Under the pieces are notes generated by a model. That model made no database searches, was not told the origin of the DNA, and was given only the letters and a program-made list of their open reading frames with translations. From positions 91,022-155,021 of the forward strand of contig DATFGX010000016.1 of NCBI GenBank assembly GCA_035248905.1: a DNA stretch of 64,000 nucleotides, given 5' to 3'. This DNA comes from Blastocatellia bacterium (GTDB taxonomy: Bacteria > Acidobacteriota > Blastocatellia > UBA7656). Position numbers and translations under genes: made by a program. Positions 12,504 through 60,099 of the stretch are shown here, piece by piece (position 1 is the stretch's first letter; each line of letters begins with the position of its first letter).

Positions 12504-12755
12504 TCTCGTCGCGGCGTAATGCCCTTCCTTTTAGCCTGCGAGGTTAGCTGACGGGCTTGGACTGGAAGTGTCCTACGAGTGCCTCAGACTCGATACGCCC
12601 CTGCCGCGTCCACAACGACGCGACCCTGGTTCCCCCGCGTTGCCCTTCTCACGCCCTCGGCGCCGCGAGCAACTTCGGCAGACATACTGTGATGCAGGAA
12701 TCTTACGCAGGTCGGTTGAGAAAGTCAAAAACAAATATCATCGCCGCTACTTCGC

Positions 12756-28615: not shown

Positions 28616-28684
28616 GATGCCTCTCCGAAGCCAATCAACCCTTGTGAGCGTTGCGCCCGCAAGCCGGCGCGGCGCTCACGCTTT

Positions 28685-29110
28685 GGAGTGAATCTGTAAG
28701 CCGAATTCTGTTCCGCCCCTCTCAGAAATCAGCGTCGCCCGAAGGCGCGCCGGCGTGAGCATGAGAGCAGCGGCGACGGTCATTCATCTAGGCGGCGGAT
28801 TGCTCCGCGCGCTCAAGCGACCTACCCGGAGACTTCGGACGGGCCGTCCTGATAACGTCTCCCTATTTGGTCTTGCACCACGGAGAGTTTGCCTAGCCAC
28901 GGTGTGTCGCCACCCGTGCTGGTGGGCGCTTACCCCACCGTTTCACCCATCACCTGATCCGCGAAGCGCGGCCATCGGCTGGTCTGTTCTCTGTTGCACT
29001 TGTCGTCGGGTCGCCCCGCCTGGCCGTTAGCCAGTCCGTAGCCCTGTGGTGTTCGGACTTTCCTCTCGCTCGCTGAAAATCAGTGAGCCAGCAACCGCCC
29101 GATTCACTCC
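28685..29110 (-). ncRNA. rnpB: RNase P RNA (bacterial type A), minus strand
   Basis: Reverse complement carries universal rnpB blocks: GAGGAAAGTCCGAACACCACAGGGC (P4 5' side), GGGTGAAACGGTGGGGTAAGCGCCCACCAG (P10-P12 region), ACAGAATTCGGCTTAC (P4 3' side); P1 pairing GGAGTGAATC/GATTCACTCC; terminator hairpin GTGAGCG...CGCTCAC just downstream (28641-28684). Confidence 0.9.
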
Positions 29111-43714: not shown

Positions 43715-45256
43715 TCACTTTTTATTGATCGCCGCCATCATCTCGCGCATCATCTCGGCTTCGCTCATCGGCGTCCAGCCATGCCGCTTGCCCGGCCCGT
43801 ACTTGATCCAGCCTTCGTAAGGCGGCTGCGCGCTCGCCAAGAAGGCGTCGAGCAGGTGCACGGCGTTATTCAAGAAGTAGTCGTCGGCTTCGCCGACCCA
43901 GATGTGCAGCTTGCCGCGCAGCCGCGGCGCGAGCGGCGGCCAGTTCGCTTCGAGGATCAGCCGCAGGTCGTAGCGCTTCCAATGCTCGACGACGCGGCGA
44001 TCAATCTTGCCGGTCTGCGGGTCCCACAGCGGCACCGGGCGACCGTCAGCGCCGCGCGGCCCGTAGACCGCATTCCACGCGCCCCATTGCTGGCCAGACA
44101 TCGTCCAACTGTCGCCCGCGCCCAGCACGTTTTCCATCTGGCACTCGTGGCGAATGGTGAATTCAACATCGCCGTTGGCGGCGCGCTTGCTCGGACGCTC
44201 GAAGCCCCAGCGGTTCACGTAAGCGTTGTCGTCTCCGTAGACGTTGATCAGTTGAAAAGCGCGAAAGTCTACGCCATCGGGATAGCCCGACCACGTGCCG
44301 TTGAAGAAATCCGGGTAGAAGATTTGCAGCGCCAGCGACACCCAGCCGCCGGTCGAGCCGCCGTTGAGCACGCGCGATGCCGGCGTGCCGATGCAGCGGA
44401 AAGTTTTTTCGACGTAAGGAATCAGCTCACCGGTCACGGCGTCGCCGTAAGGGCCGTTGTTGTCCGAGTTCACCTGATAGCAATCGCCGAACGGCCCATC
44501 GCCGTCGAGCTGCAACAAGACCATGCGCGGCGTGTCGTCGGCAAGCCAGGTGCGCCGGAAGCCTGAGCCGTTGCGCATCAACTGCTGCGCGATGGTGTAG
44601 CGCGTGCCATAGCCGCCGATCTGCACGCGCAGCGGGTAGCGTAGCTGTGGGTCCCTCGCGTAATCGCGCGGCAGGATGACGGCGGCGCGCAAATAGATCG
44701 GTCGCCCATGGAATTTCGTCAGTAGCGCCGATTGTAGCCTGACATACTTTACATAATCGGTGTCGGCGGGCAACTGGTCGGGCGGCTCTTGTTTGTTCAG
44801 CTCGATCTTCACCGCGCCGGTGCGCGCCGGGTCGAGATGGACGCGGCTCGGCGCGCTGTAAAGGTTGCCGGGCGCATTGACCGACGCCAGGTCGCGGTTG
44901 GTATCGAAGACCGCCTGCACCCAGTAATCACCCGCCGGCAAGTGCGCCAGGTCTTGAATGGGAAAGGCGATGGCTTTCTCATCGAGCACCGCAACCGCGC
45001 CCGCCGCAAAGTCGCTCACGTCGCGCGCCACGACCGGCGGCGCGTCCAGCCCCGTGTCGCTGATGTGCGTGCGCGGCTCGTCATCGCGCTTCTGGCTCAT
45101 CACGACGAAGAGGCGACCGCTCTGCGGCTTACTGGTGAGGCCGGGCGCGACGCTGACCTCAAAGCGTAGCGTCGCCGCCGCGGCCATCGGCGCGGGCGCG
45201 TACGCAAGCGCAATCGCCGGCAGTATGAGACTCAAGAGGAGAAGTTTTTTCATCAT
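43715..45256 (-). CDS. secreted alpha/beta-hydrolase, putative esterase (enterochelin-esterase-like)
   Basis: Signal peptide MMKKLLLLSLILPAIALA; GxSxG-type nucleophile elbow (NGGSTGGW); putative-esterase family length and pattern; the ORF-track 5' extension is rejected. Confidence 0.5.
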   Translation of the reverse strand: MMKKLLLLSLILPAIALAYAPAPMAAAATLRFEVSVAPGLTSKPQSGRLFVVMSQKRDDEPRTHISDTGLDAPPVVARDVSDFAAGAVAVLDEKAIAFPIQDLAHLPAGDYWVQAVFDTNRDLASVNAPGNLYSAPSRVHLDPARTGAVKIELNKQEPPDQLPADTDYVKYVRLQSALLTKFHGRPIYLRAAVILPRDYARDPQLRYPLRVQIGGYGTRYTIAQQLMRNGSGFRRTWLADDTPRMVLLQLDGDGPFGDCYQVNSDNNGPYGDAVTGELIPYVEKTFRCIGTPASRVLNGGSTGGWVSLALQIFYPDFFNGTWSGYPDGVDFRAFQLINVYGDDNAYVNRWGFERPSKRAANGDVEFTIRHECQMENVLGAGDSWTMSGQQWGAWNAVYGPRGADGRPVPLWDPQTGKIDRRVVEHWKRYDLRLILEANWPPLAPRLRGKLHIWVGEADDYFLNNAVHLLDAFLASAQPPYEGWIKYGPGKRHGWTPMSEAEMMREMMAAINKK

Positions 45257-45299
45257 CGATCTTTTCAGCGAAGACGTATGCAGGCTTTCCACTGAAATT

Positions 45300-45640
45300 A
45301 AAAGCAGCCATCCAGCCCACTTCAGCAGATGAGTGTCAGTGATTCCGCAGCCCGCTTCATCTGATGAATCGCGGCATTCCGCAGCCCGCTGAAGCGGGCT
45401 TACCCGCAGGGCAAATAGGCCAGCGCTTCTAGCGCTGGTTGGCCGCCGCGATAAGAAATCGGGAGGGCGCTTTAGCGTCCTTCTCGCCGCGGCTTTAGCC
45501 AGATGGCTAAAGCCATGCGTCATAAGCCCGTTAAAACGGGCTATAGGTTTATGCGTCGCCGTGAACCAGCCCTAAAAGGGCTGGCCTATTTGCCCTGCGG
45601 GTAAGCGGCCTGAAGGCCGCTCAGGAATTACCGAGAACAT
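45300..45640. repeat. highly structured intergenic element: a 155-bp core flanked by perfect 26-bp inverted repeats (45399-45424 / 45580-45605) with many internal and flanking stem-loops; MITE or REP-like
   Basis: CTTACCCGCAGGGCAAATAGGCCAGC vs GCTGGCCTATTTGCCCTGCGGGTAAG; internal hairpins AGCGCTTCTAGCGCT, GGCTTTAGCC-AGAT-GGCTAAAGCC, AGCCCGTTAAAACGGGCT, CAGCCCTAAAAGGGCTGG; flanking TGAA-loop hairpins; direct repeat ATTCCGCAGCCCGCT twice. Confidence 0.55.
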
Positions 45641-45699
45641 CACCAAGAACTTGACTTCATTCGACCCCAAGAATATCGCTTAATTCGACGCGCACCATT

Positions 45700-46431
45700 T
45701 CATTCGACGCGCACGATGGCCGCCGGGTCGAGCGCCGCAAGCAGTGCGGCGCGCACCGCTTCGACTGCCGCCGCCTCTTTCGATTCGACCGTCAGCTTGA
45801 CGCGATACTCGTCGCTCGTGAAGTTGGGGTACGAGCCGATCTCAACTTCGGGGTGGCGAGCGGCGACCGCATCAAGTCGCGGCGTGATGTCGAATTCGTC
45901 TTCGCGGGTGTAGATGGTTGCGGCAAAGAACGGCGCGGCGCGGAAGCGCTCGCGGATCGCCTCGAACTTGCTGCGAAAGAGTTCCGGCACGCCCGGCAGC
46001 ACGAAGACGTTTTCGACCGCCAGCGCAGGCCAGCGCATGCCGCTGTCGTGCAGCAGGGTTGCGCCTTCGGGAATGTCGGCCAGGCGCAATCGCGCTTCGT
46101 CGATGCCGTCGCCGAAGTAGCCGCGCAGCATGGCTTCAAGCTGCGGGTGGCGGACGACCCGGCGCTCGAAGGCGCAGGCGATGCCGGCAATCGTCATGTC
46201 GTCGTGCGTCGGGCCGACGCCGCCCGACGTGAAAACGTAGTCAAAGCGACCGGCGCATTCGCGCACCGCTTGCGCGATGGTCTCAAGCTCGTCGGGGATG
46301 ACGACGATGCGCCGCAGCGCGACGCCCAGCTCGCGCAGCTCGTCGATCAGAAAACTGGCGTTCTTGTCGGGCGATTTGCCGCTGAGGATTTCGTTGCCGA
46401 TGACCACAATCGCCGCCGTCTTCTGCTGCAT
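45700..46431 (-). CDS. CinA-like protein, MoCF-biosynthesis (molybdopterin-binding) domain
   Basis: MoaB/MogA/CinA N-domain pattern (AAIVVIGNEILSGK...FDYVFTSGGVGPTHDDMT). Confidence 0.75.
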   Translation of the reverse strand: MQQKTAAIVVIGNEILSGKSPDKNASFLIDELRELGVALRRIVVIPDELETIAQAVRECAGRFDYVFTSGGVGPTHDDMTIAGIACAFERRVVRHPQLEAMLRGYFGDGIDEARLRLADIPEGATLLHDSGMRWPALAVENVFVLPGVPELFRSKFEAIRERFRAAPFFAATIYTREDEFDITPRLDAVAARHPEVEIGSYPNFTSDEYRVKLTVESKEAAAVEAVRAALLAALDPAAIVRVE

Positions 46432-46658
46432 AGCGGAATCATACTAGAGGCGAGAGGTCGGCGGCCAGGGCCGCCCAATGGTCTCTTTCGCCGCCGCATC
46501 CTGGGCGGCAAAGTTATGGTTGGTGGCCGGTATTAATAGACGAGTAAGCGGGATAGGGAATCGAAGATTAACCTATCCCGCCTCTGTAGTCCCCCACACA
46601 TCCTAAACAATTTGGCAGGTTGGCTAGGACGTGTGCGGCAAGGCACGAAAGGAGTACC

Positions 46659-46784
46659 ATGCAAGATAAGAATATGCCCGTCTGGGTCCGCTGGTTAAGT
46701 CTATTTTTGCCCGCGCCGTCGGAGGCGCTTCACCACGTCACTCTGATGCTACTGCTCGAGCTTCTCAAACTGCTCTTGCATTAA
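46659..46784 (+). CDS. candidate 41-aa small hydrophobic protein (MQDKNMPVWVRWLSLFLPAPSEALHHVTLMLLLELLKLLLH)
   Basis: AAAGGAG RBS 4 nt upstream of the ATG; Leu-rich amphipathic C-terminus; lies in the low-GC island; too short for the ORF track. Confidence 0.3.
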   Translation: MQDKNMPVWVRWLSLFLPAPSEALHHVTLMLLLELLKLLLH

Positions 46785-46821
46785 CCGGAGGCGTCGGGCC
46801 GATCCCAGGTTACAAGTCTAG

Positions 46822-46850
46822 GAGTGGCGACTTCCCGCATCGCCACTCCT
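46822..46850. terminator. perfect 10-bp stem hairpin followed by a T-rich tract on the minus strand, downstream of the LytM-like gene
   Basis: GGAGTGGCGA-CTTCCCGCA-TCGCCACTCC. Confidence 0.5.
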
Positions 46851-46890
46851 GGTTACTGAATCGGCTTGGTTTGATTTTTCTTGCCCTCAG

Positions 46891-47877
46891 TCAATACTCT
46901 TTCTTGAGGTACGAAAGAACATTATCCGGCTTGTTGTCCTTATAAACTTCATACCGCAGGGCCACCTCCTCTCTGCGGGCGACACGCGGCGTGTAACCCA
47001 AGGTGTCCCCACTCTTGACCTCCTGTCCCCTGATGACTTTGATCGAGGCCAAGGGTCCATAACAAGTCACCACACCGTCCGCATGCAAAACGCGGACGCA
47101 CCGACCATAGTTTCGCACCTGTGTGCTACCGATTACCTGGCCATCCGCCGTGGTGCGGACGCGCGTGCCCGGCGGCACCAGCATTTTAACTTCCACCGGA
47201 TGTGGGAAGGCGGGCAAGGTGAACACCTTGTTCGCCCGGTCGACCGGCAGCCCCAAGGGCCTGTCGGGGTCCGCCGCGACGAGCGGCGAGGTGTCATCAG
47301 ACGTTTTCTTATTGCCGCCCGCCGATCTGATTGTCACCAGGTTGAAGAGCTTCTGGTTCATAGCCATCAGCAACTCAAGTCGGTCGGAGAGTTTTTCAGA
47401 AGAGCGCACGGCGGTCTCCTTTTCTCCCTTGAGTCGGGCGATCTGGCTCCCGGCGGCGGCATATCTGGCTTCCCATTCTTGCTCGCGCACGGCGACCCAC
47501 TTGTTATGCCGATTACTCACCAGGCTGCCAGTCAGGACGCAGCCCAATACAAAGCCGACAGAGACGGGGACCCACAAGCGTCTAGAGAGAAAGAGCCTGG
47601 TCAAGCCCGCGGCCACCAGAACGGCGAACGTGTAGCCGATCCTGCCGATGCCCGGTTCGTCGTGGCGCAGGATCACTTTAGTGGTCGGAGATCGAAGAAG
47701 AATCTTGACAGCATCGGGCAGCCCCTCTTTCCTACAAGCATTCATCGCCTCCAGACCTTCATTGACCTCGTCGGGCGAAAGCCTCGCGATATACTCCGGG
47801 TCTGACTCCTTTAGCTTTTCCCGAAGTTTCGAGTAGACTAGGGCCCGACCTGTAGCCGAGTTCTCTAAGTTAGGCAT
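46891..47877 (-). CDS. membrane protein with coiled-coil and C-terminal catalytically degenerate LytM (M23) domain; possible anti-sigma or regulator partner of the upstream ECF sigma factor
   Basis: Two TM helices; coiled coil (IARLKGEKETAVRSSEKLSDRLELLMAMNQKLF); M23-like C-terminus (VRVLHADGVVTCYGPL...GDTLGYT) in which the HxH catalytic motif is replaced (ALRYEVY); 8-nt overlap with the sigma gene; low GC. Confidence 0.55.
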   Translation of the reverse strand: MPNLENSATGRALVYSKLREKLKESDPEYIARLSPDEVNEGLEAMNACRKEGLPDAVKILLRSPTTKVILRHDEPGIGRIGYTFAVLVAAGLTRLFLSRRLWVPVSVGFVLGCVLTGSLVSNRHNKWVAVREQEWEARYAAAGSQIARLKGEKETAVRSSEKLSDRLELLMAMNQKLFNLVTIRSAGGNKKTSDDTSPLVAADPDRPLGLPVDRANKVFTLPAFPHPVEVKMLVPPGTRVRTTADGQVIGSTQVRNYGRCVRVLHADGVVTCYGPLASIKVIRGQEVKSGDTLGYTPRVARREEVALRYEVYKDNKPDNVLSYLKKEY

Positions 47878-48451
47878 TTACCCATACCTCCTTCACAAAT
47901 TTGATCTTGTTTCTCAGTCGTTTTTGGGCTTGATGCATCTTCGACATTTCCAAACCCAGCTTCCGAGCAATATCCTGTGGCTTCAGGTCTGGTAATTCGA
48001 TCCATTCCTTTACAATGGCGGTTAGCAGCTCGTCGTCTTCAACCAGTTGCAGGATGAAACTGCAAAGTTCGTTATAGAACACTAAGCGGTCTGTTTGAAC
48101 GGCGGGCTGGATGAGGCCGGGGTTGGCCTGAGAGAACTCGTGCAAAACCAGCTCGATCAAGCTGACGGTCTCATCGTCGTAAAGCTCCTCGATGGAGATC
48201 TGCCGGGTGGCAGATTCCCAAAAATGACTCAGCTTACTCCCGACTATGCGACAGAGGCCAATGAACAGGGGGATCTCCGGGTTGATCCGTCTTCGACTTG
48301 TCAGCACATCAAGGAACGTCTGTTGGATGATGTCTTCCAGAATATCCACCGGAATCCACTTGTACCTCCGCAAAACATGGAGTCGGACACGATCATAAAG
48401 CAAGGCCAATTCCTTCTCTAATGTTCCGTCCTCGCCGCCCGTCCATTTCAT
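47870..48451 (-). CDS. ECF-type RNA polymerase sigma factor (sigma-70 regions 2 and 4)
   Basis: Region 2-like (DIIQQTFLDVL) and region 4 HTH (LPDLKPQDIARKLGLEMSKMHQAQKRLRNKI); GGAGGT RBS; low GC (about 45%). Confidence 0.7.
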   Translation of the reverse strand: MKWTGGEDGTLEKELALLYDRVRLHVLRRYKWIPVDILEDIIQQTFLDVLTSRRRINPEIPLFIGLCRIVGSKLSHFWESATRQISIEELYDDETVSLIELVLHEFSQANPGLIQPAVQTDRLVFYNELCSFILQLVEDDELLTAIVKEWIELPDLKPQDIARKLGLEMSKMHQAQKRLRNKIKFVKEVWVNA

Positions 48452-48865
48452 GCTAGCACCTCCTAGTAACTCTTTAGCTCATTCTCAAAAGAGCAGATGC
48501 GCAGGCCCTGACGAAGTGAGCGATGCAAACAGTAGTGGGAAAGGGATACAGCACATTGAGCGACTCTCGTCGCTTTATTACAACAAGCTCAAAACGACTG
48601 TCACATAAGTATAAACCGGCGGGCAATGCCTTTTTTCCCTCCGTAAAAAAAAAACGGAAAAATCGCCTCTCTGGTGGGTATAGTAAGCAGATAGGAAAAG
48701 GGATACAGCACATATCCTGTATGTAGAAGAGCTAGACACAGTACCCGCGCCGCGAGGCCAGCAGCACATATGACCGACCACCCGCCTCTAGCCTATTTCC
48801 CGAAAATCGCATAGAATTTCTGCGCACACCTCTACAACCCGAAGTACTGTCGAAAGGAGCAATGC

Positions 48866-53858: not shown

Positions 53859-55502
53859 TTACTTTCTCAGCACGGCCAGCCGCGCCCGCGCCTGCTGCAA
53901 CTCCGGCAGGTCTGCGTCGGCGTTGCGCCAGAGCTTTTCGGCTTCCGCATACTCTTTGATGGCCACCGCGTTATCGTTCTTATGCTCGGCGGCGAGCGCC
54001 AGCGCGTAATGGCTGCCGGCGTAGGCCGGGTCGTGGTCGAGCATCTGCCGCGCCATGGTCTCTGCCAGTTCCCAATCGCCGGCACGCCGCGCCGCCGCGC
54101 CGATGGCTTCCAGCCGGAACAATGCTTGCACCCAGGCATCGGGGCCGCGTTCGGAGCGAATCTTACTCACCACCTGCTTGAGCATCCCCCTGCCCTTTTC
54201 GGCCTCGCCGGTGCGCAAGAAGAACTCGCCCTGCAAGGCTTCCATGTACGGCGTGACGAGGGTGGCGCGGCTGCCCATCTGCTGCATCTCGCGCAGGGCC
54301 GATTTGGCCGCCGCGCTCGCCGCCGGCAGGTCGTTCAAAGCCATCTCGGCGTGGCTGACGAAAATGAAACCGATTGCCCGCACGATGTCCGAGCGGCTGC
54401 GCGACAACCGCGCAGCGGCCTCCAGGGCTTCTTGCATGCGGCCACGGGCGATTAAAAACTGCGGCCACTGCTTCTTGTTGAACTCCAGCGTGTCCTGCAT
54501 CGACGGGATCGTGAATGCCTGTCGCATAATGCGCTCGGCCTCTTTCATCTGCCCCTGGTGCTGGTATGAAGTCGCCAGCAAATCGAGATTGTGCTCGTGA
54601 TGCCAGTCGAATTGCGGCGGGATGTTTTCGGCTTTGTAGTAGTCCAGTTCGAGCTGGTCGGCGCGGCGGAACTGGGTGATGGCATCCGCCACGCGCCCGA
54701 CGCGGCGCAGGTCGTGGCCGTACATGTGCAGCGCGTGCGGCACCGAGAAAGCTAATCGCGCATACACCTCGCCGTGCTGCAAGGCTTCCGGGATGCGCCC
54801 GACGTTTTCGCACGAGTGCGTCAGGTAATGATGCGCGGCGATATTGTCGGGCACAAGCTGAAGCGCTTTCTCGTAAAACTGAATCGATGCCTCGCCGCCG
54901 CGCTGGCCGCGCCCGGCGGCGCTGTCTTCTTCTGCATTGCCGCGCAGCAGCCAGAGTTCTGTATCCTGCGGGTAAGCGGCCAGCGCTTCGTCGAGCGCTT
55001 TCTTATACTCCGAAAACTTCACCATGTTGCCACGATCGGCGATGGCCGTGAGTTGTTTGGCGCGCAACGCAATGCGCAGTTGTTCGCGCTTGCTGGCACC
55101 GGGCGCGAGCGCTTGCGCCTGATCAACGGCGGCGCGCGCCGCCTCCCAGACGTTCAACCCCGCATAGGCGCGGCTCAGGCCGACGTAAGCCATCGCCAGT
55201 TTCGGGTCGAGCCGCAAGGCTTGATTGAACGAGCGCGCCGCTTCGATAAAGACGTAGCCGTGCAGGTAGGCGACGCCCTGCGTGTAGAACGCCTGTGCCT
55301 CTTTTGATGAAGTGGTCACCGGATCATTGATCGTTTGCGCGCCGGTGCCGGCCCTGATCGTCACGGGCCGTTCGAGCAGTTCCGCCGGAAAGGTGAGCGG
55401 CACGTCGTCGGCTTCGGCCTGCGCGTGTTGATGTTCCTGCGCGAAGGCCGACGGCGAAACGATCAGTAAGCACAGAGCAAGAAAGAAGATTGCCAGCTTC
55501 AT
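53859..55502 (-). CDS. secreted TPR-repeat protein
   Basis: Signal peptide; more than ten TPR-like helical repeats. Confidence 0.6.
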   Translation of the reverse strand: MKLAIFFLALCLLIVSPSAFAQEHQHAQAEADDVPLTFPAELLERPVTIRAGTGAQTINDPVTTSSKEAQAFYTQGVAYLHGYVFIEAARSFNQALRLDPKLAMAYVGLSRAYAGLNVWEAARAAVDQAQALAPGASKREQLRIALRAKQLTAIADRGNMVKFSEYKKALDEALAAYPQDTELWLLRGNAEEDSAAGRGQRGGEASIQFYEKALQLVPDNIAAHHYLTHSCENVGRIPEALQHGEVYARLAFSVPHALHMYGHDLRRVGRVADAITQFRRADQLELDYYKAENIPPQFDWHHEHNLDLLATSYQHQGQMKEAERIMRQAFTIPSMQDTLEFNKKQWPQFLIARGRMQEALEAAARLSRSRSDIVRAIGFIFVSHAEMALNDLPAASAAAKSALREMQQMGSRATLVTPYMEALQGEFFLRTGEAEKGRGMLKQVVSKIRSERGPDAWVQALFRLEAIGAAARRAGDWELAETMARQMLDHDPAYAGSHYALALAAEHKNDNAVAIKEYAEAEKLWRNADADLPELQQARARLAVLRK

Positions 55503-56613: not shown

Positions 56614-56832
56614 ACGTCGGTGCCTGAGATGGCGCGCCGAGAATGCCCGGCGCCGACTTGAAATCGCGGCGCGCTGTGATAGACTCAACGCGCAATAAGT
56701 TTACAACAGCGCGGCTCGTTTCCACACTTACAAAAAAGCGATGGCACAGTGGAGGCATCTATCGAAAGTGTGGGCAGGCCGCGGCTGCCCTTCTGATTGA
56801 AACTCAACAGATGGTCTCAGGAAAGGAGCGTT

Positions 56833-58263
56833 ATGTGGAGACGCAAGTGCTACGTTGACGCCGAGTCGGACATTCAATCACCGATCCCGAATCGCATCGT
56901 CTCGAATGAAGAGTTCATCCCGCCGCCGCAGTCGGCCCAGGAAGCCGAGGTCGAATACCGGCTGCGCGAGATGGCCGACCGCAACAGCAAGCGGCTTGGC
57001 CTGTCGCGCCGCACCTTCCTGCAAGGCTCTTGCGGCATGGCCGCGGCGATGCTCTGCTTCAACGAAGTCTTCGGCAAGACCTACGAGGTTGACGAGGTCG
57101 AAGCCCTGGACCCGGCGGCCTTCGCCGAGAAGTGGCCGAAGAACGAATTTATCTTCGACAACCAGACGCATCACGTCGATGTCGAGCCGGACTGGTACAA
57201 GAACAGCGAAGACGGGCGGCTGGCGGCCAACTTCTTGTCGCGGCTGCGCCCAGGCTTCAACGACATCAACAAAGCCATTGAAGCGCTGAACCGGCTGCAC
57301 TACACCAAGGAGCTGTTCTTCGATTCCGACACGGTGATGGCGATCATCAGCGGCGTCCCCTCGAACGACTGGAAGGACAACATTCTGCCGCCGGACAAGA
57401 TGGTCAAGACGCGCAACGACATCAACTCGTGGGCCGGCTCGCAGCGCATGCTGTCGCACGGCATCCTGCGCCCGAACAAGGGCCTGGGCGAGCTGGAAGA
57501 GATGGAGCGCCAGGCCAAGATGTTGAAGGTCAACTCGTGGAAGATGTATCCGGGAATGCTCGCGGGGGCGCTCAAGCCTTACCGGCTCGACGACGAGAAG
57601 GTGACCTATCCGTTCTGGGAGCGTGCGCGCAAGCTCGGATTGAAGACCGCCTGCATCCACCGCGGCCTGCCGCTCGGCCTGTTCAACGAAGAGAACTGCC
57701 ACCCGGGCGATGTCGAGAAGGCGGCCAAGGATCACCCGGACATGAACTTCGTGATCTATCATTCGGGCTGGAACCCCGGCGCGCGGCGCAAGGAAGGCGC
57801 GGCCCCGGACCCGCAGTACATTCCCTGGTGCTCAGACCTGATGGCTTTGGTCAAGCGCAGCAACTTGAAGAACGTCTACTTCGAGCTCGGCTCGACGTGG
57901 AACGGGCTGTCGAGCGCGCGGCCCGAACAGGCGATGCACCTGTTTGGCCAGTTGTTGAACATGGGCATGGACGACAACATCATCTGGGGCACGGACTCGA
58001 TCTGGGGCGGCGGCCCGCAGAGCCAGATCGAGCGCTTCCGCCGCTTCCAGATCAGCGACGAGGTCGCCAACAAGTACGAATACCGCAAGCTGACGCCAGA
58101 GCTGAAAGCGAAGGTCTTCGGGTTGAACGCCGCGCGGCTCTACAAGATCGACGTGAAGGCGAAGCGCGCCGCGATCAAAAACGACCAGGTCGAGCAATTG
58201 CGCTCGGAGTACCTGGAAAACCCCGCGCCCTCGAACACGCAGTTCGGCTGGGTGTGGGTGTAA
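56833..58263 (+). CDS. Tat-exported amidohydrolase-2 family (TIM-barrel metal-dependent hydrolase) protein
   Basis: GGAAAGGAG RBS before MWRRK; twin-arginine motif (SRRTFLQGSCGMAAAM); amidohydrolase-like HH and conserved D near the C-terminus. Confidence 0.55.
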   Translation: MWRRKCYVDAESDIQSPIPNRIVSNEEFIPPPQSAQEAEVEYRLREMADRNSKRLGLSRRTFLQGSCGMAAAMLCFNEVFGKTYEVDEVEALDPAAFAEKWPKNEFIFDNQTHHVDVEPDWYKNSEDGRLAANFLSRLRPGFNDINKAIEALNRLHYTKELFFDSDTVMAIISGVPSNDWKDNILPPDKMVKTRNDINSWAGSQRMLSHGILRPNKGLGELEEMERQAKMLKVNSWKMYPGMLAGALKPYRLDDEKVTYPFWERARKLGLKTACIHRGLPLGLFNEENCHPGDVEKAAKDHPDMNFVIYHSGWNPGARRKEGAAPDPQYIPWCSDLMALVKRSNLKNVYFELGSTWNGLSSARPEQAMHLFGQLLNMGMDDNIIWGTDSIWGGGPQSQIERFRRFQISDEVANKYEYRKLTPELKAKVFGLNAARLYKIDVKAKRAAIKNDQVEQLRSEYLENPAPSNTQFGWVWV

Positions 58264-58289
58264 GCAAGTAGGCAGGCATCGCTCCGTAG

Positions 58290-58430
58290 GAGCGCAATGT
58301 TTATAGTCGGCCGGTTTGTAGTTTGATCAAGCTCCGTCAGGAGCGGCATATTGACATTGCGCCCCTACGGGGCTTGTGATTTTTCTCGACCGCACCAACT
58401 ATAAACATTGCGTCCCTAACGGGACTGGAA
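58290..58430. repeat. REP-like intergenic element: 14-bp inverted repeat (CGCAATGTTTATAG / CTATAAACATTGCG) and four short GC hairpins with tetraloops
   Basis: CGCTCC-GTAG-GAGCG, GCTCC-GTCA-GGAGC, CCCC-TACG-GGGC, TCCC-TAAC-GGGA, plus repeated ATTGCG motifs. Confidence 0.5.
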
Positions 58431-58437
58431 GCTCACG

Positions 58438-60099
58438 ATGAAAAGATTCTGGTTCGCGCTCGTCATCCTCTCCGCCCTCTGCTGCGCCGCATTCGTCGGC
58501 GTCGCGCCGGCGCAGCAAAGCAATGGCTCACAGCCGGCGACTGCCGCAGTCACAAAGCCCCTTGAAGAGATGGTGGCGATGCGTGACGGCGTGCACCTGT
58601 CAACCAGCATCTACCTGCCCGAAGGCAAGGGACCATTCCCTGTGGTGCTGGTCCGTACGCCTTACGGCAAAGGGACGCAGGCCGTCGGCTACGCGGCGTG
58701 GACGAAGCGCGGCTTCGCGCTGGTCACGCAGGACGTGCGCGGCAAGGGCAAGAGCGAAGGCCCGTACCGCCCGTTCGTGGACGACGCCAACGATGGCCTT
58801 GATTCGGTCGAGTGGATTGCCAAGCAGCCGTGGTCGAACGGCAAAGTCGGCATGTTCGGCGCTTCAGCGATGGGCATCACGGCGAATCTGGCGGCGATGA
58901 TGAACCCGCCGCATCTGGTCGCCACCTTTGTGATGGTGGCGCGGTCGAGCATCTACACGCAGTCGGCTTTCATGGGCGGCGTCTTTCGCAAAGAGCTGAA
59001 CGAAATCTGGCTCAAGCGCCAGGGCGCGATGGACGTGCTTGAAGAGACCTTCAAGCACAACGTCTACGATCATTTTTATGACCTCGCCGAAATGCCGCTC
59101 TACTGGGACAAGATCAAGGTGCCGGTCTACAACTATGGCGGCTGGTACGACATCTTCGCGCAGGGCAACATCGACAACTTCGTCGGCCAGCAAGCGCAGG
59201 GCGGGGGGCTGGCGGCGGGCAATCAGAAGCTGATGATGGGGCCGTGGGGCCACGGGCAGATCGAAGAGATCAAGTACCCGGCGAACTCTGTAGTGAGTGC
59301 TACAGATGAAGCCTTGCGCTGGTTCGACTACTGGCTGCAAGGCAAAGACAACGGCATCATGGACGAGCCGCCGGTGAAGTATTACGTGATGGGTGACGTC
59401 ACGGACGCGAAAGCGCCGGGCAACGAATGGCGCACCGCCACCAGTTGGCCCGTGCCCGCAAAGACGACTTCGTACTTTCTCACGGCGGGCGGCGGCCTGA
59501 GCGACAAGCTGCCGGGAACGGGCGAGAGCCTAGACACCTACAAGTACGACCCCAAGAATCCCGTGCCGACCATCGGCGGCGCGAACCTCAACATCAAGAA
59601 AGGCCCGATGGATCAGCGCGCCGTAGGCACTCGGCAAGACCTGCTGAAATTCATGACGCCGGCGCTCGACACGCCCGTTGAAGTGACGGGCCGCGTTAAA
59701 GTCGAGCTGTGGGCCGAATCCGATGCCGCGGACACGGACTTCATGGCGAAGCTGGTGGATGTTTATCCGGATGGCACCGAGCGGCTGGTGTTAGATTCGG
59801 CGGTGCGGGCGCGCTTCCGCGAAGGCTTCGACCACGAAGTGTTCATGAAGAAGGGCGAAGTCTATCGCTTGACGATTGACCTCTGGTCAACCAGCATCAT
59901 CTTCAACAAAGGCCACCGCATCGCGATTCACGTCAGCAGCTCGAACGACCCGCGCTTCGACCCGAACCCGAATACCGGCAAGCCCTTGCGCGCCGACAAT
60001 GAGACGCGCGTGGCGACCAACACGATCCACCACGACCGCGCGCACCCGTCGCGCGCCTTGCTACCGATTGTCCCGGTTTACAACAGCAAGCGGCCATAA
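58438..60099 (+). CDS. secreted CocE/NonD-family hydrolase (peptidase S15, Xaa-Pro dipeptidyl-peptidase-like)
   Basis: Signal peptide; conserved S15 N-terminal region (PVVLVRTPYGKG) and nucleophile context (GMFGASAMG); C-terminal beta-sandwich domain. Confidence 0.8.
   Translation: MKRFWFALVILSALCCAAFVGVAPAQQSNGSQPATAAVTKPLEEMVAMRDGVHLSTSIYLPEGKGPFPVVLVRTPYGKGTQAVGYAAWTKRGFALVTQDVRGKGKSEGPYRPFVDDANDGLDSVEWIAKQPWSNGKVGMFGASAMGITANLAAMMNPPHLVATFVMVARSSIYTQSAFMGGVFRKELNEIWLKRQGAMDVLEETFKHNVYDHFYDLAEMPLYWDKIKVPVYNYGGWYDIFAQGNIDNFVGQQAQGGGLAAGNQKLMMGPWGHGQIEEIKYPANSVVSATDEALRWFDYWLQGKDNGIMDEPPVKYYVMGDVTDAKAPGNEWRTATSWPVPAKTTSYFLTAGGGLSDKLPGTGESLDTYKYDPKNPVPTIGGANLNIKKGPMDQRAVGTRQDLLKFMTPALDTPVEVTGRVKVELWAESDAADTDFMAKLVDVYPDGTERLVLDSAVRARFREGFDHEVFMKKGEVYRLTIDLWSTSIIFNKGHRIAIHVSSSNDPRFDPNPNTGKPLRADNETRVATNTIHHDRAHPSRALLPIVPVYNSKRP

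Follow-up and report, generated by a model that had tools for sequence, protein, structure and literature searches.

A hairpin-rich intergenic spacer of a Blastocatellia bacterium very probably holds a gene-less, REPIN/MITE-like copy of a Y1 transposase cassette

The spacer between a cinA-like gene and a secreted putative esterase gene of a Blastocatellia bacterium (contig DATFGX010000016.1) raises a simple question: what is the densely folded DNA that fills it? The stretch analysed here, hereafter the window, is 64 kb long, and the coordinates of the element are window positions. The spacer measures 434 bp, and for its structured part the initial annotation, made from the sequence alone, had offered a non-autonomous mobile element, namely a miniature inverted-repeat transposable element (MITE) with terminal inverted repeats (TIRs) or a repeat of the repetitive extragenic palindrome (REP) type, or, alternatively, a structured regulatory RNA. 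We conclude that the element at 45376-45628, which consists of two inverted REP modules and a 117-bp core, is very probably a non-autonomous, REPIN/MITE-like copy, lacking an open reading frame (ORF), of a small Y1/HUH (IS200-like/RAYT-like) cassette of Blastocatellia and other Acidobacteria, where a REPIN is a REP doublet that forms a hairpin and a RAYT is a REP-associated tyrosine transposase. What was observed is homology to both flanks of the cassette, absence of the ORF, an empty orthologous site, conservation of the hairpins and the occurrence of further copies at loci unrelated to this one, with three or more in one metagenome-assembled genome (MAG). The element adds a new case to a familiar class of bacterial repeats and is not a new RNA.

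Two 26-nt arms, 45399-45424 (+) and 45580-45605 (-), frame the centre of the element and, as had been annotated, are exact reverse complements with a 155-bp core (45425-45579) between them; no third match with 3 or fewer mismatches was found in the 64 kb, where 0 would be expected by chance. The inverted repeat (I1) extends imperfectly to 45376-45440 and 45564-45628, 65 nt with 80% complementarity, and the differences between these long arms are compensatory, the outer hairpins reading GCCCGC/GCGGGC versus GCGGCC/GGCCGC and the inner ones CCAGCGC/GCGCTGG versus CCAGCCC/GGGCTGG. This was a first hint that the local hairpins, and not the long stem alone, are constrained. Folded as DNA, 45376-45628 reaches -92 kcal/mol (z = -9.65 against shuffled controls) and the whole element forms one long hairpin; as RNA, the region gives -185.9 and -189.2 kcal/mol on the two strands (z = -10.2 and -10.6 against shuffled controls). 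Such a very stable predicted fold on both strands would also suit a functional structured RNA, that is a small RNA or a cis-regulatory leader of the esterase messenger RNA (mRNA) selected for its fold.

Each end of the element is a 65-nt REP module, composed of a hairpin H1 with a 6-7-bp stem and usually a TTCA loop, a linker, CCCGMAGGGCAAWTAGGCC, and a hairpin H2 (CCAGCCG-loop-CGGCTGG). In the left module, 45379-45443 (+), H1 is AGCCCGC-TGAA-GCGGGCT (45383-45400), the linker CCCGCAGGGCAAATAGGCC occupies 45403-45421 (+) within the perfect arm and H2 is CCAGCGC-TTCTA-GCGCTGG (45420-45438); in the inverted right module, 45561-45625 (-), H2 is CCAGCCC-TAAAA-GGGCTGG (45566-45584), the linker lies at 45583-45601 (-), again within its perfect arm, and H1 is AGCGGCC-TGAA-GGCCGCT (45604-45621), with compensatory changes relative to the left H1. 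The outer GC hairpins with TGAA loops and four perfect hairpins of the core had been described in the initial annotation and are present, those of the core at 45420-45438, 45491-45514, 45525-45542 and 45566-45584.

We aligned 22 distinct REP modules (alignment A2, with the window modules as rows win_L and win_Rrc) and compared their pairing with 500 shuffles and with slid-partner controls. In A2, 93.3% of cells are paired, compared with 77.5% in the shuffles, and 52 cells have changed on both sides, compared with 14.9; none of the 500 shuffles reaches 52 and the slid controls stay at or below 12. Double changes fall in 5 of the 7 pairs of H1 (helix 1), whose stem varies across the family, and in 4 of the 7 pairs of H2, which, as helix 3, is paired in 98.7% of cells. 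The linker is conserved in sequence, with invariant columns and an invariant TAG adjoining the foot of H2, and shows no covariation; it is probably unpaired. Compensatory changes in hairpins could be taken to favour a structured RNA, but they would equally be expected of single-stranded DNA hairpins bound by a Y1 transposase, an HUH enzyme that acts on single-stranded DNA.

A covariance model of the module, R1, built after these tests, finds exactly two modules in the 64-kb window, the left one at 74.8 bits (E 2.8e-17) and the right one at 82.8 bits (E 2.5e-19), and neither the arms, the H1 hairpin nor the 15-nt repeat described next is found again within it. That 15-nt direct repeat, ATTCCGCAGCCCGCT, which had been annotated, is indeed present, at 45342 and 45376, although it is not significant by itself (two or more matches occurred in 8 of 100 shuffles). 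Its first copy falls within 45313-45375, where there are two degenerate, roughly 35-nt partial repeats of the left terminus (CAGCCCACTTCAGC... and ATTCCGCAGCCCGCTTCATC...; direct repeats D2 and D5, inverted repeats I4, I6 and I7); judged from the sequence, this segment may be a remnant of a REP cluster, comparable to tandem arrays of end units in relatives (loci L010, L012 and L021). A 17-nt short-word blastn match at 54965-54981 was considered as a further copy and rejected, being inside a coding region and judged to be chance. Around it, at 54965-54989, a 24-nt stretch of GC-rich coding sequence, CCTGCGGGTAAGCGGCCAGCGCTTC, resembles two separate parts of the element, the arm end and the start of H2, and was likewise judged to be chance.

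To which kind of element this architecture belongs is indicated by full-length relatives. At three loci (L010, L011 and L012) an ORF of 139-154 aa, on the minus strand of the element, separates its left half from its right half; this ORF scores 81-85 bits against the Pfam family Y1_Tnp (PF01797) and 74.6 bits against the NCBIfam model transpos_IS200 (cut-off 55). The HVHLV and YVRNQ segments of the cassette protein align to HIHIL and YIENQ of IS608 TnpA, that is to the HUH motif and the region of the catalytic tyrosine, and in a search of the PDB its best relative was IS608 TnpA, the other matches being IS200-type TnpA proteins. When three ORF-less copies (the window, L008 and L005) and four cassettes (L010, L011, L018 and L020) are aligned, 45376-45628 is colinear with them on both sides and the sole gap is a stretch of 435 nt of L010, which is the ORF.

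In the cassettes the order is REP module, H3, GGCTTTAGCC, IS200-like transposase gene (140-155 aa), GGCTAAAGCC, H5 and inverted REP module, and the window keeps all of these blocks in order but has 4 nt in place of the gene. The corresponding core hairpins of the window are H3 (GGGCGC-TTTA-GCGTCC with one G.T pair, 45465-45480), H4 (GGCTTTAGCCA-GA-TGGCTAAAGCC, 45491-45514, inverted repeat I5), the centre of which, at about 45501-45504, is the place of the transposase ORF in the full-length relatives, and H5 (AGCCCG-TTAAAA-CGGGCT, 45525-45542). The cassette ORF runs through the GGCTTTAGCC block and ends at H3, which overlaps its stop codon and 3' end (in L010 its TCA abuts GCGCGC), and its start codon lies about 0-14 nt from the GGCTAAAGCC block (0 in L018, 13-14 in L010, L011 and L020), with H5 some 9 nt past that block and about 25-35 nt upstream of the start codon. 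Pairing is retained through compensatory variants of both hairpins, which were read directly from the alignments: GGGCGC/GCGTCC, GCGCGC/GCGTGC and GGGCGT/ACGTCC for H3, and GCCCG/CGGGC versus GGCCG/CGGCC in other copies for H5. That the same blocks flank a transposase gene argues against their being a structured RNA in their own right.

All homologues of the transposase found on contigs, those of L018-L021 included, are flanked by inverted 65-nt REP modules; beside the gene the modules often stand in tandem, as in L012, L019 and L021, and there are arrays of H1-only units in L010 and L020. A single-locus test of the transposase gene, made on the genomes of relatives, placed the cassette of L010, L011, L018 and L020 at one orthologous locus, with a VIT/VWA gene on one side and a giant TPR gene on the other and with flanking proteins 65-84% identical, and found the P0180 transposase in one context in 14 of 14 contigs. 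RAYTs are told from insertion sequences by a single vertically inherited locus and by flanking repeats that are dispersed elsewhere, and a "RAYT-like IS200 Group 3" with mixed properties has been described (PMC5581495). A single orthologous locus with dispersed repeats elsewhere is RAYT-like behaviour of the transposase gene.

Separately, we noted some variation at the ends of the cassettes. In that of P0180 (L021-L029) the number of tandem REP modules varies between samples with an identical protein, with three modules on the right side versus two; in L012 (678-1024) the right end is present in three 141-bp tandem copies; and L010 (2630-2865) has five tandem H1-only units, each diverging just after AACCYGC, which is perhaps a cleavage point.

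The site of the element is empty in relatives. Four syntenic loci (L001-L004) were obtained through esterase homologues 80-88% identical to that of the window. Their cinA-like/esterase spacers are unlike the element in L001 (43 bp), L004 (52 bp) and L003 (66 bp), and that of L002, at 211 bp, is occupied by another hairpin repeat; R1 finds no REP module in any of the four. With 434 bp in the window compared with 43-66 bp in relatives, the element is an insertion relative to its close relatives. Its absence upstream of the orthologous esterase in all four closest relatives also counts against a regulatory RNA, for which the position directly upstream of the esterase start codon would otherwise speak. 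We aligned filled and empty sites for the exact insertion point, and the spacers are too diverged to define it; what they have in common is the end of the cinA-like gene and some 12 nt ahead of the esterase ATG. Target-site duplications, which the initial annotation had proposed looking for, were not seen, as no direct repeat adjoins 45376 and 45628.

Further copies were sought with a 20-mer from the arm, ACCCGCAGGGCAAATAGGCC, scanned across species-representative genomes and, in addition, metagenomes. In the former the same architecture was found in three Acidobacteria MAGs, JACQTD01 (L005-L007), JBJMGV01 (L008) and DATEKX01 (L010), and the metagenome scan contributed L011 and L012; overall, these exact scans gave few loci. 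Copies elsewhere, which the annotation had considered possible, are thus present in other genomes, contrary to the case that it had named as refuting, a single copy with nothing similar in relatives. L008 and L005 are complete or almost complete elements with the blocks in the order of the window. JACQTD01 has matches on three contigs, two of them at contig ends, and its copies have in common the left end and about 110 nt beyond, after which the outer flanks differ, which indicates that this MAG holds at least three copies at different sites. JBJMGV01 has both an empty site at L003 and an ORF-less copy at L008, a locus unrelated to that of the window, where the neighbours are a spermidine-synthase-like membrane protein gene, read from the sequence with no tool annotation, and a repeat protein gene. 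The "+" strand of the element is in sense orientation to the flanking genes in L008 and antisense in the window, and this varying orientation, like the placement of homologous copies beside unrelated genes, is a further argument against a regulatory RNA. The element DNA had no match in plasmids, phages or viral contigs. Matches of the 20-mer that lack flanking hairpins were set aside as chance: L009, the sixth hit of the genome scan, which lies in a Comamonadaceae coding region, as well as L013, L014/L015 and L016/L017, the last of these being collagen-like GGx repeats. As an observation of its own, a GC-rich palindrome, perfect or nearly so and different in each case, directly adjoins every one of the three JACQTD01 copies (L005 2830-2890, L006 170-200 and L007 165-195); GGCACGGGCGTCCCGCCCGTGCC is an example. 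The palindromes may be terminators that belong to neighbouring genes, in which case insertion beside hairpins would be suggested, or a further, variable-stem hairpin of the element.

How such a copy could have reached its site may be outlined by analogy with IS608 TnpA and the E. coli TnpA-REP. A cognate Y1 transposase, encoded once and elsewhere in the genome, would recognise the hairpins in folded single-stranded DNA, for example on the lagging-strand template, and would cut in or beside the conserved linker, the proposed recognition or cleavage region. The doublet would then be moved or copied in trans without target-site duplication, and we infer that in this case it came to lie between co-directional neighbours whose spacing in relatives is 43-66 bp. 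Because it is placed between co-directional genes, the element is probably transcribed together with them, and, by analogy with REPs, it may have a side effect on termination or mRNA stability as a by-product.

Several results weigh against this interpretation. There is no Y1 gene in the 64-kb window, to which the search of this organism was confined, and the window has one doublet, with none found by R1 in about 70 kb of close relatives, a result that gives no sign of an abundant family. The cassette protein has no match to the E. coli RAYT structure at E <= 1 and is IS200-like, outside the classical RAYT clades. Classical IS200/IS605 elements end in subterminal hairpins that lie on one strand and are unlike each other, with no inverted repeat between them, whereas here a single 65-nt module stands in opposite orientations at the two ends, and the parent gene does not seem to be present in several copies. 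Moreover, identity to the window is 72% for L008 and 61-69% for the cassette flanks (69% being L020), so that ORF-less copies are barely closer to one another than to the cassettes, and the junction left by the missing gene differs in L005. ORF-less copies may therefore either move as such or arise repeatedly through loss of the ORF.

This bears on the alternative that survives best, in which the spacer between the cinA-like and esterase genes once received a complete cassette whose ORF was subsequently deleted, leaving a dead relic that was never mobile as an ORF-less unit. The presence of a single copy within 64 kb and the lack of a clear separate lineage of ORF-less copies would both fit this, and so would the junction of L005, which retains a single GGCTGAAGCC and, judged from the sequence, is consistent with an independent deletion between two near-identical 10-mers, GGCTNNAGCC. 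However, a very similar junction, CCAGAT-GGCTAAAGCC, is found in the window and in L008, at unrelated loci of different genomes; the at least three copies of JACQTD01 combine the same left ends with differing outer flanks; and in four genomes the cassette with the ORF keeps to a single orthologous locus, so that it is apparently not the gene-bearing form that spreads. We therefore consider a relic formed in place to be unlikely.

Far less probable still is a functional structured RNA. The weak Rfam match to ar9 (28.1 bits) that might be cited for it is the best match in the region and lies below the gathering score of 45; a permissive scan gave only sub-threshold ar9, P26 and snoRNA-type matches, which we treat as noise, and a consensus scan of 45150-45800 found no sigma-70-like promoter and no intrinsic terminator pattern. 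Together with its absence from orthologous sites and its changing orientation, this leaves the regulatory RNA of the initial annotation highly improbable. A gathering-level Rfam scan of the whole window lists only two matches, both elsewhere: a c-di-AMP riboswitch at 12518-12690 (-), with 70.3 bits, and bacterial RNase P class A at 28681-29110 (-), with 276 bits. A classical TIR-MITE of a DDE transposon was rejected, as no target-site duplication is seen and the full-length relatives encode a Y1 transposase and not a DDE enzyme; what stands of the MITE proposal is the gene-less element, the supposed TIRs being REP-like hairpin modules.

We return to the reading of the element as an ORF-less cassette copy with its genomic setting, in which protein matches place the organism in Blastocatellia (Acidobacteriota). 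Downstream lies the secreted putative esterase (43715-45265, -; Pfam PF00756), with homologues of up to 88% identity, and upstream the cinA-like gene (45700-46431, -), with MoCF_biosynth and FLAD1_M domains by Pfam, which is syntenic in L001-L004. The start of the esterase is the ATGATG at 45265, and since its homologues are 509-518 aa long, a mechanical ORF at 43715-45523, which reaches into the element, is a mere upstream extension of the esterase frame, in line with the earlier statement that the element has no ORF. Just beside the element, at 45643-45713, there are three 23-nt direct repeats (D1): the final codons of the cinA-like gene with its stop (GTGCGCGTCGAATGA), a tandem duplicate of these immediately downstream and, after it, a unit resembling GTCGAATGA; slippage and the footprint of earlier insertions are both candidates for their origin.

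On the other side of the cinA-like gene, the segment that separates it from a PQQ-repeat gene varies among the syntenic relatives (window 46432-48865; about 8100-9200 in L001-L004). In the window it holds an M23-peptidase-like gene and an unknown 193-aa gene, and GC content falls to 0.47-0.55; in L003 and L004 there are two TIR-domain genes, in L002 a 2OG-Fe(II) oxygenase gene and in L001 an unknown 199-aa gene. This looks like a small hot spot of gene turnover, possibly related to defence.

The window also contains a second, unrelated family of hairpin repeats, at 58270-58430 in the spacer between the ORFs 56797-58263 and 58438-60099, with units resembling CGCTCCGTAGGAGCGCAATGTTTATAG and ACATTGCGCCCCTACGGGGCTT. 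A tblastn match of 25.8 bits at 58266-58412, considered as a remnant of a Y1 gene, proved to be this different family. The same family fills the cinA-like/esterase spacer of L002 (9830-9985), the site of the window's REP doublet, and its GCGCAATGTTTAT motif resembles the first codons of the Y1 gene (MPRNVYS), which may be coincidence.

A puzzling 434-bp structured spacer is in this way explained, and the case cautions against calling such a spacer a regulatory RNA. The 65-nt REP module, as model R1, together with the linker provides a searchable definition for a repeat family of poorly studied soil Acidobacteria, one which also breaks MAG assemblies, as two of the three copies in one MAG are at contig ends. 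In addition, an IS200-like transposase with the behaviour of a domesticated RAYT is now matched by two cleanly paired forms, one with the ORF and one without, and this pair could be used to study how REP doublets are recognised and copied. If the ORF-less copies are mobilised in trans, they would offer a direct view of REPINs arising from an IS200-type cassette by loss of the ORF, and REPIN-RAYT-type systems would be extended to Acidobacteria, with an unusual REP of two hairpins tagged by a linker.

Among known systems, the element is like the bacterial interspersed mosaic elements (BIMEs) of E. coli in that its REP hairpins form mosaic clusters in which intact units have partial or degenerate ones as neighbours (45313-45375; L010, L012 and L021), and unlike them in that there is no sequence relationship. 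BIMEs are characterised by the binding of IHF, gyrase or Pol I.

The GTAG-tagged REPs form stem-loops with an unpaired tag at the 5' foot of the stem, and occur as head-to-head dimers and in tandem clusters (PMC3733652). In the related REPtrons and TIRtrons a tyrosine-transposase gene is flanked by long inverted repeats, including "double palindromes", and TIRtrons have already been reported in Acidobacteria; their TIRYT proteins are of RAYT type (WQ..F and Y..NPV..GLV), unlike EWQTGYGVVSFG and YVRNQKQHH here, so that membership of the acidobacterial TIRtrons was rejected (PMC3733652). What the present family has in common with these systems is the conserved unpaired tag at the foot of the stem (NTAG-GCC...), the head-to-head dimers, the tandem clusters and a Y1 gene between long inverted repeats. 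The E. coli REP has the form GTAG-GCC..., which the tag here resembles. The family differs in that only TAG is invariant, the preceding base being A, T or C in 21 of 22 modules and G in 1 of 22.

With the IS200/IS605 family the element shares a parent whose gene product is a Y1_Tnp protein, HUH motif and catalytic tyrosine included, and it is like the ORF-less MITE derivatives of that family in having lost the ORF and kept both hairpin-bearing ends. No target-site duplication is visible at 45376 and 45628, the empty sites of relatives being too diverged to place the insertion exactly.

REPIN-RAYT systems combine REP doublets that form hairpins with REP-associated tyrosine transposases (PMC3116915; PMC5581495), and they are among the nearest known systems. 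Here, too, two inverted REP units lie in one long hairpin, and the same units flank a Y1/HUH gene in relatives (L010, L011, L012 and L018-L021); the transposase gene is at a single vertically inherited locus, without plasmid or phage copies, and the element is extragenic, between co-directional genes. The differences are that the protein is IS200-like in sequence and outside the RAYT sequence clades, that the REP unit is 65 nt long with two hairpins and a conserved linker, and that the doublet of about 250 bp keeps the untranslated flanks of the transposase gene, its 117-nt spacer being longer than in classical REPINs. REPINs number tens to hundreds per genome; the counts here are one doublet in the 64-kb window and at least 3 copies in JACQTD01. 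Because the transposase is IS200-like and yet fixed at one locus, in the central loop of a REPIN-like doublet and with gene-less doublets dispersed elsewhere, we suggest, tentatively and as the less probable side of the question, that these elements of Blastocatellia could represent a stage, still living, on the way from IS200 insertion sequences to REPIN-RAYT systems.

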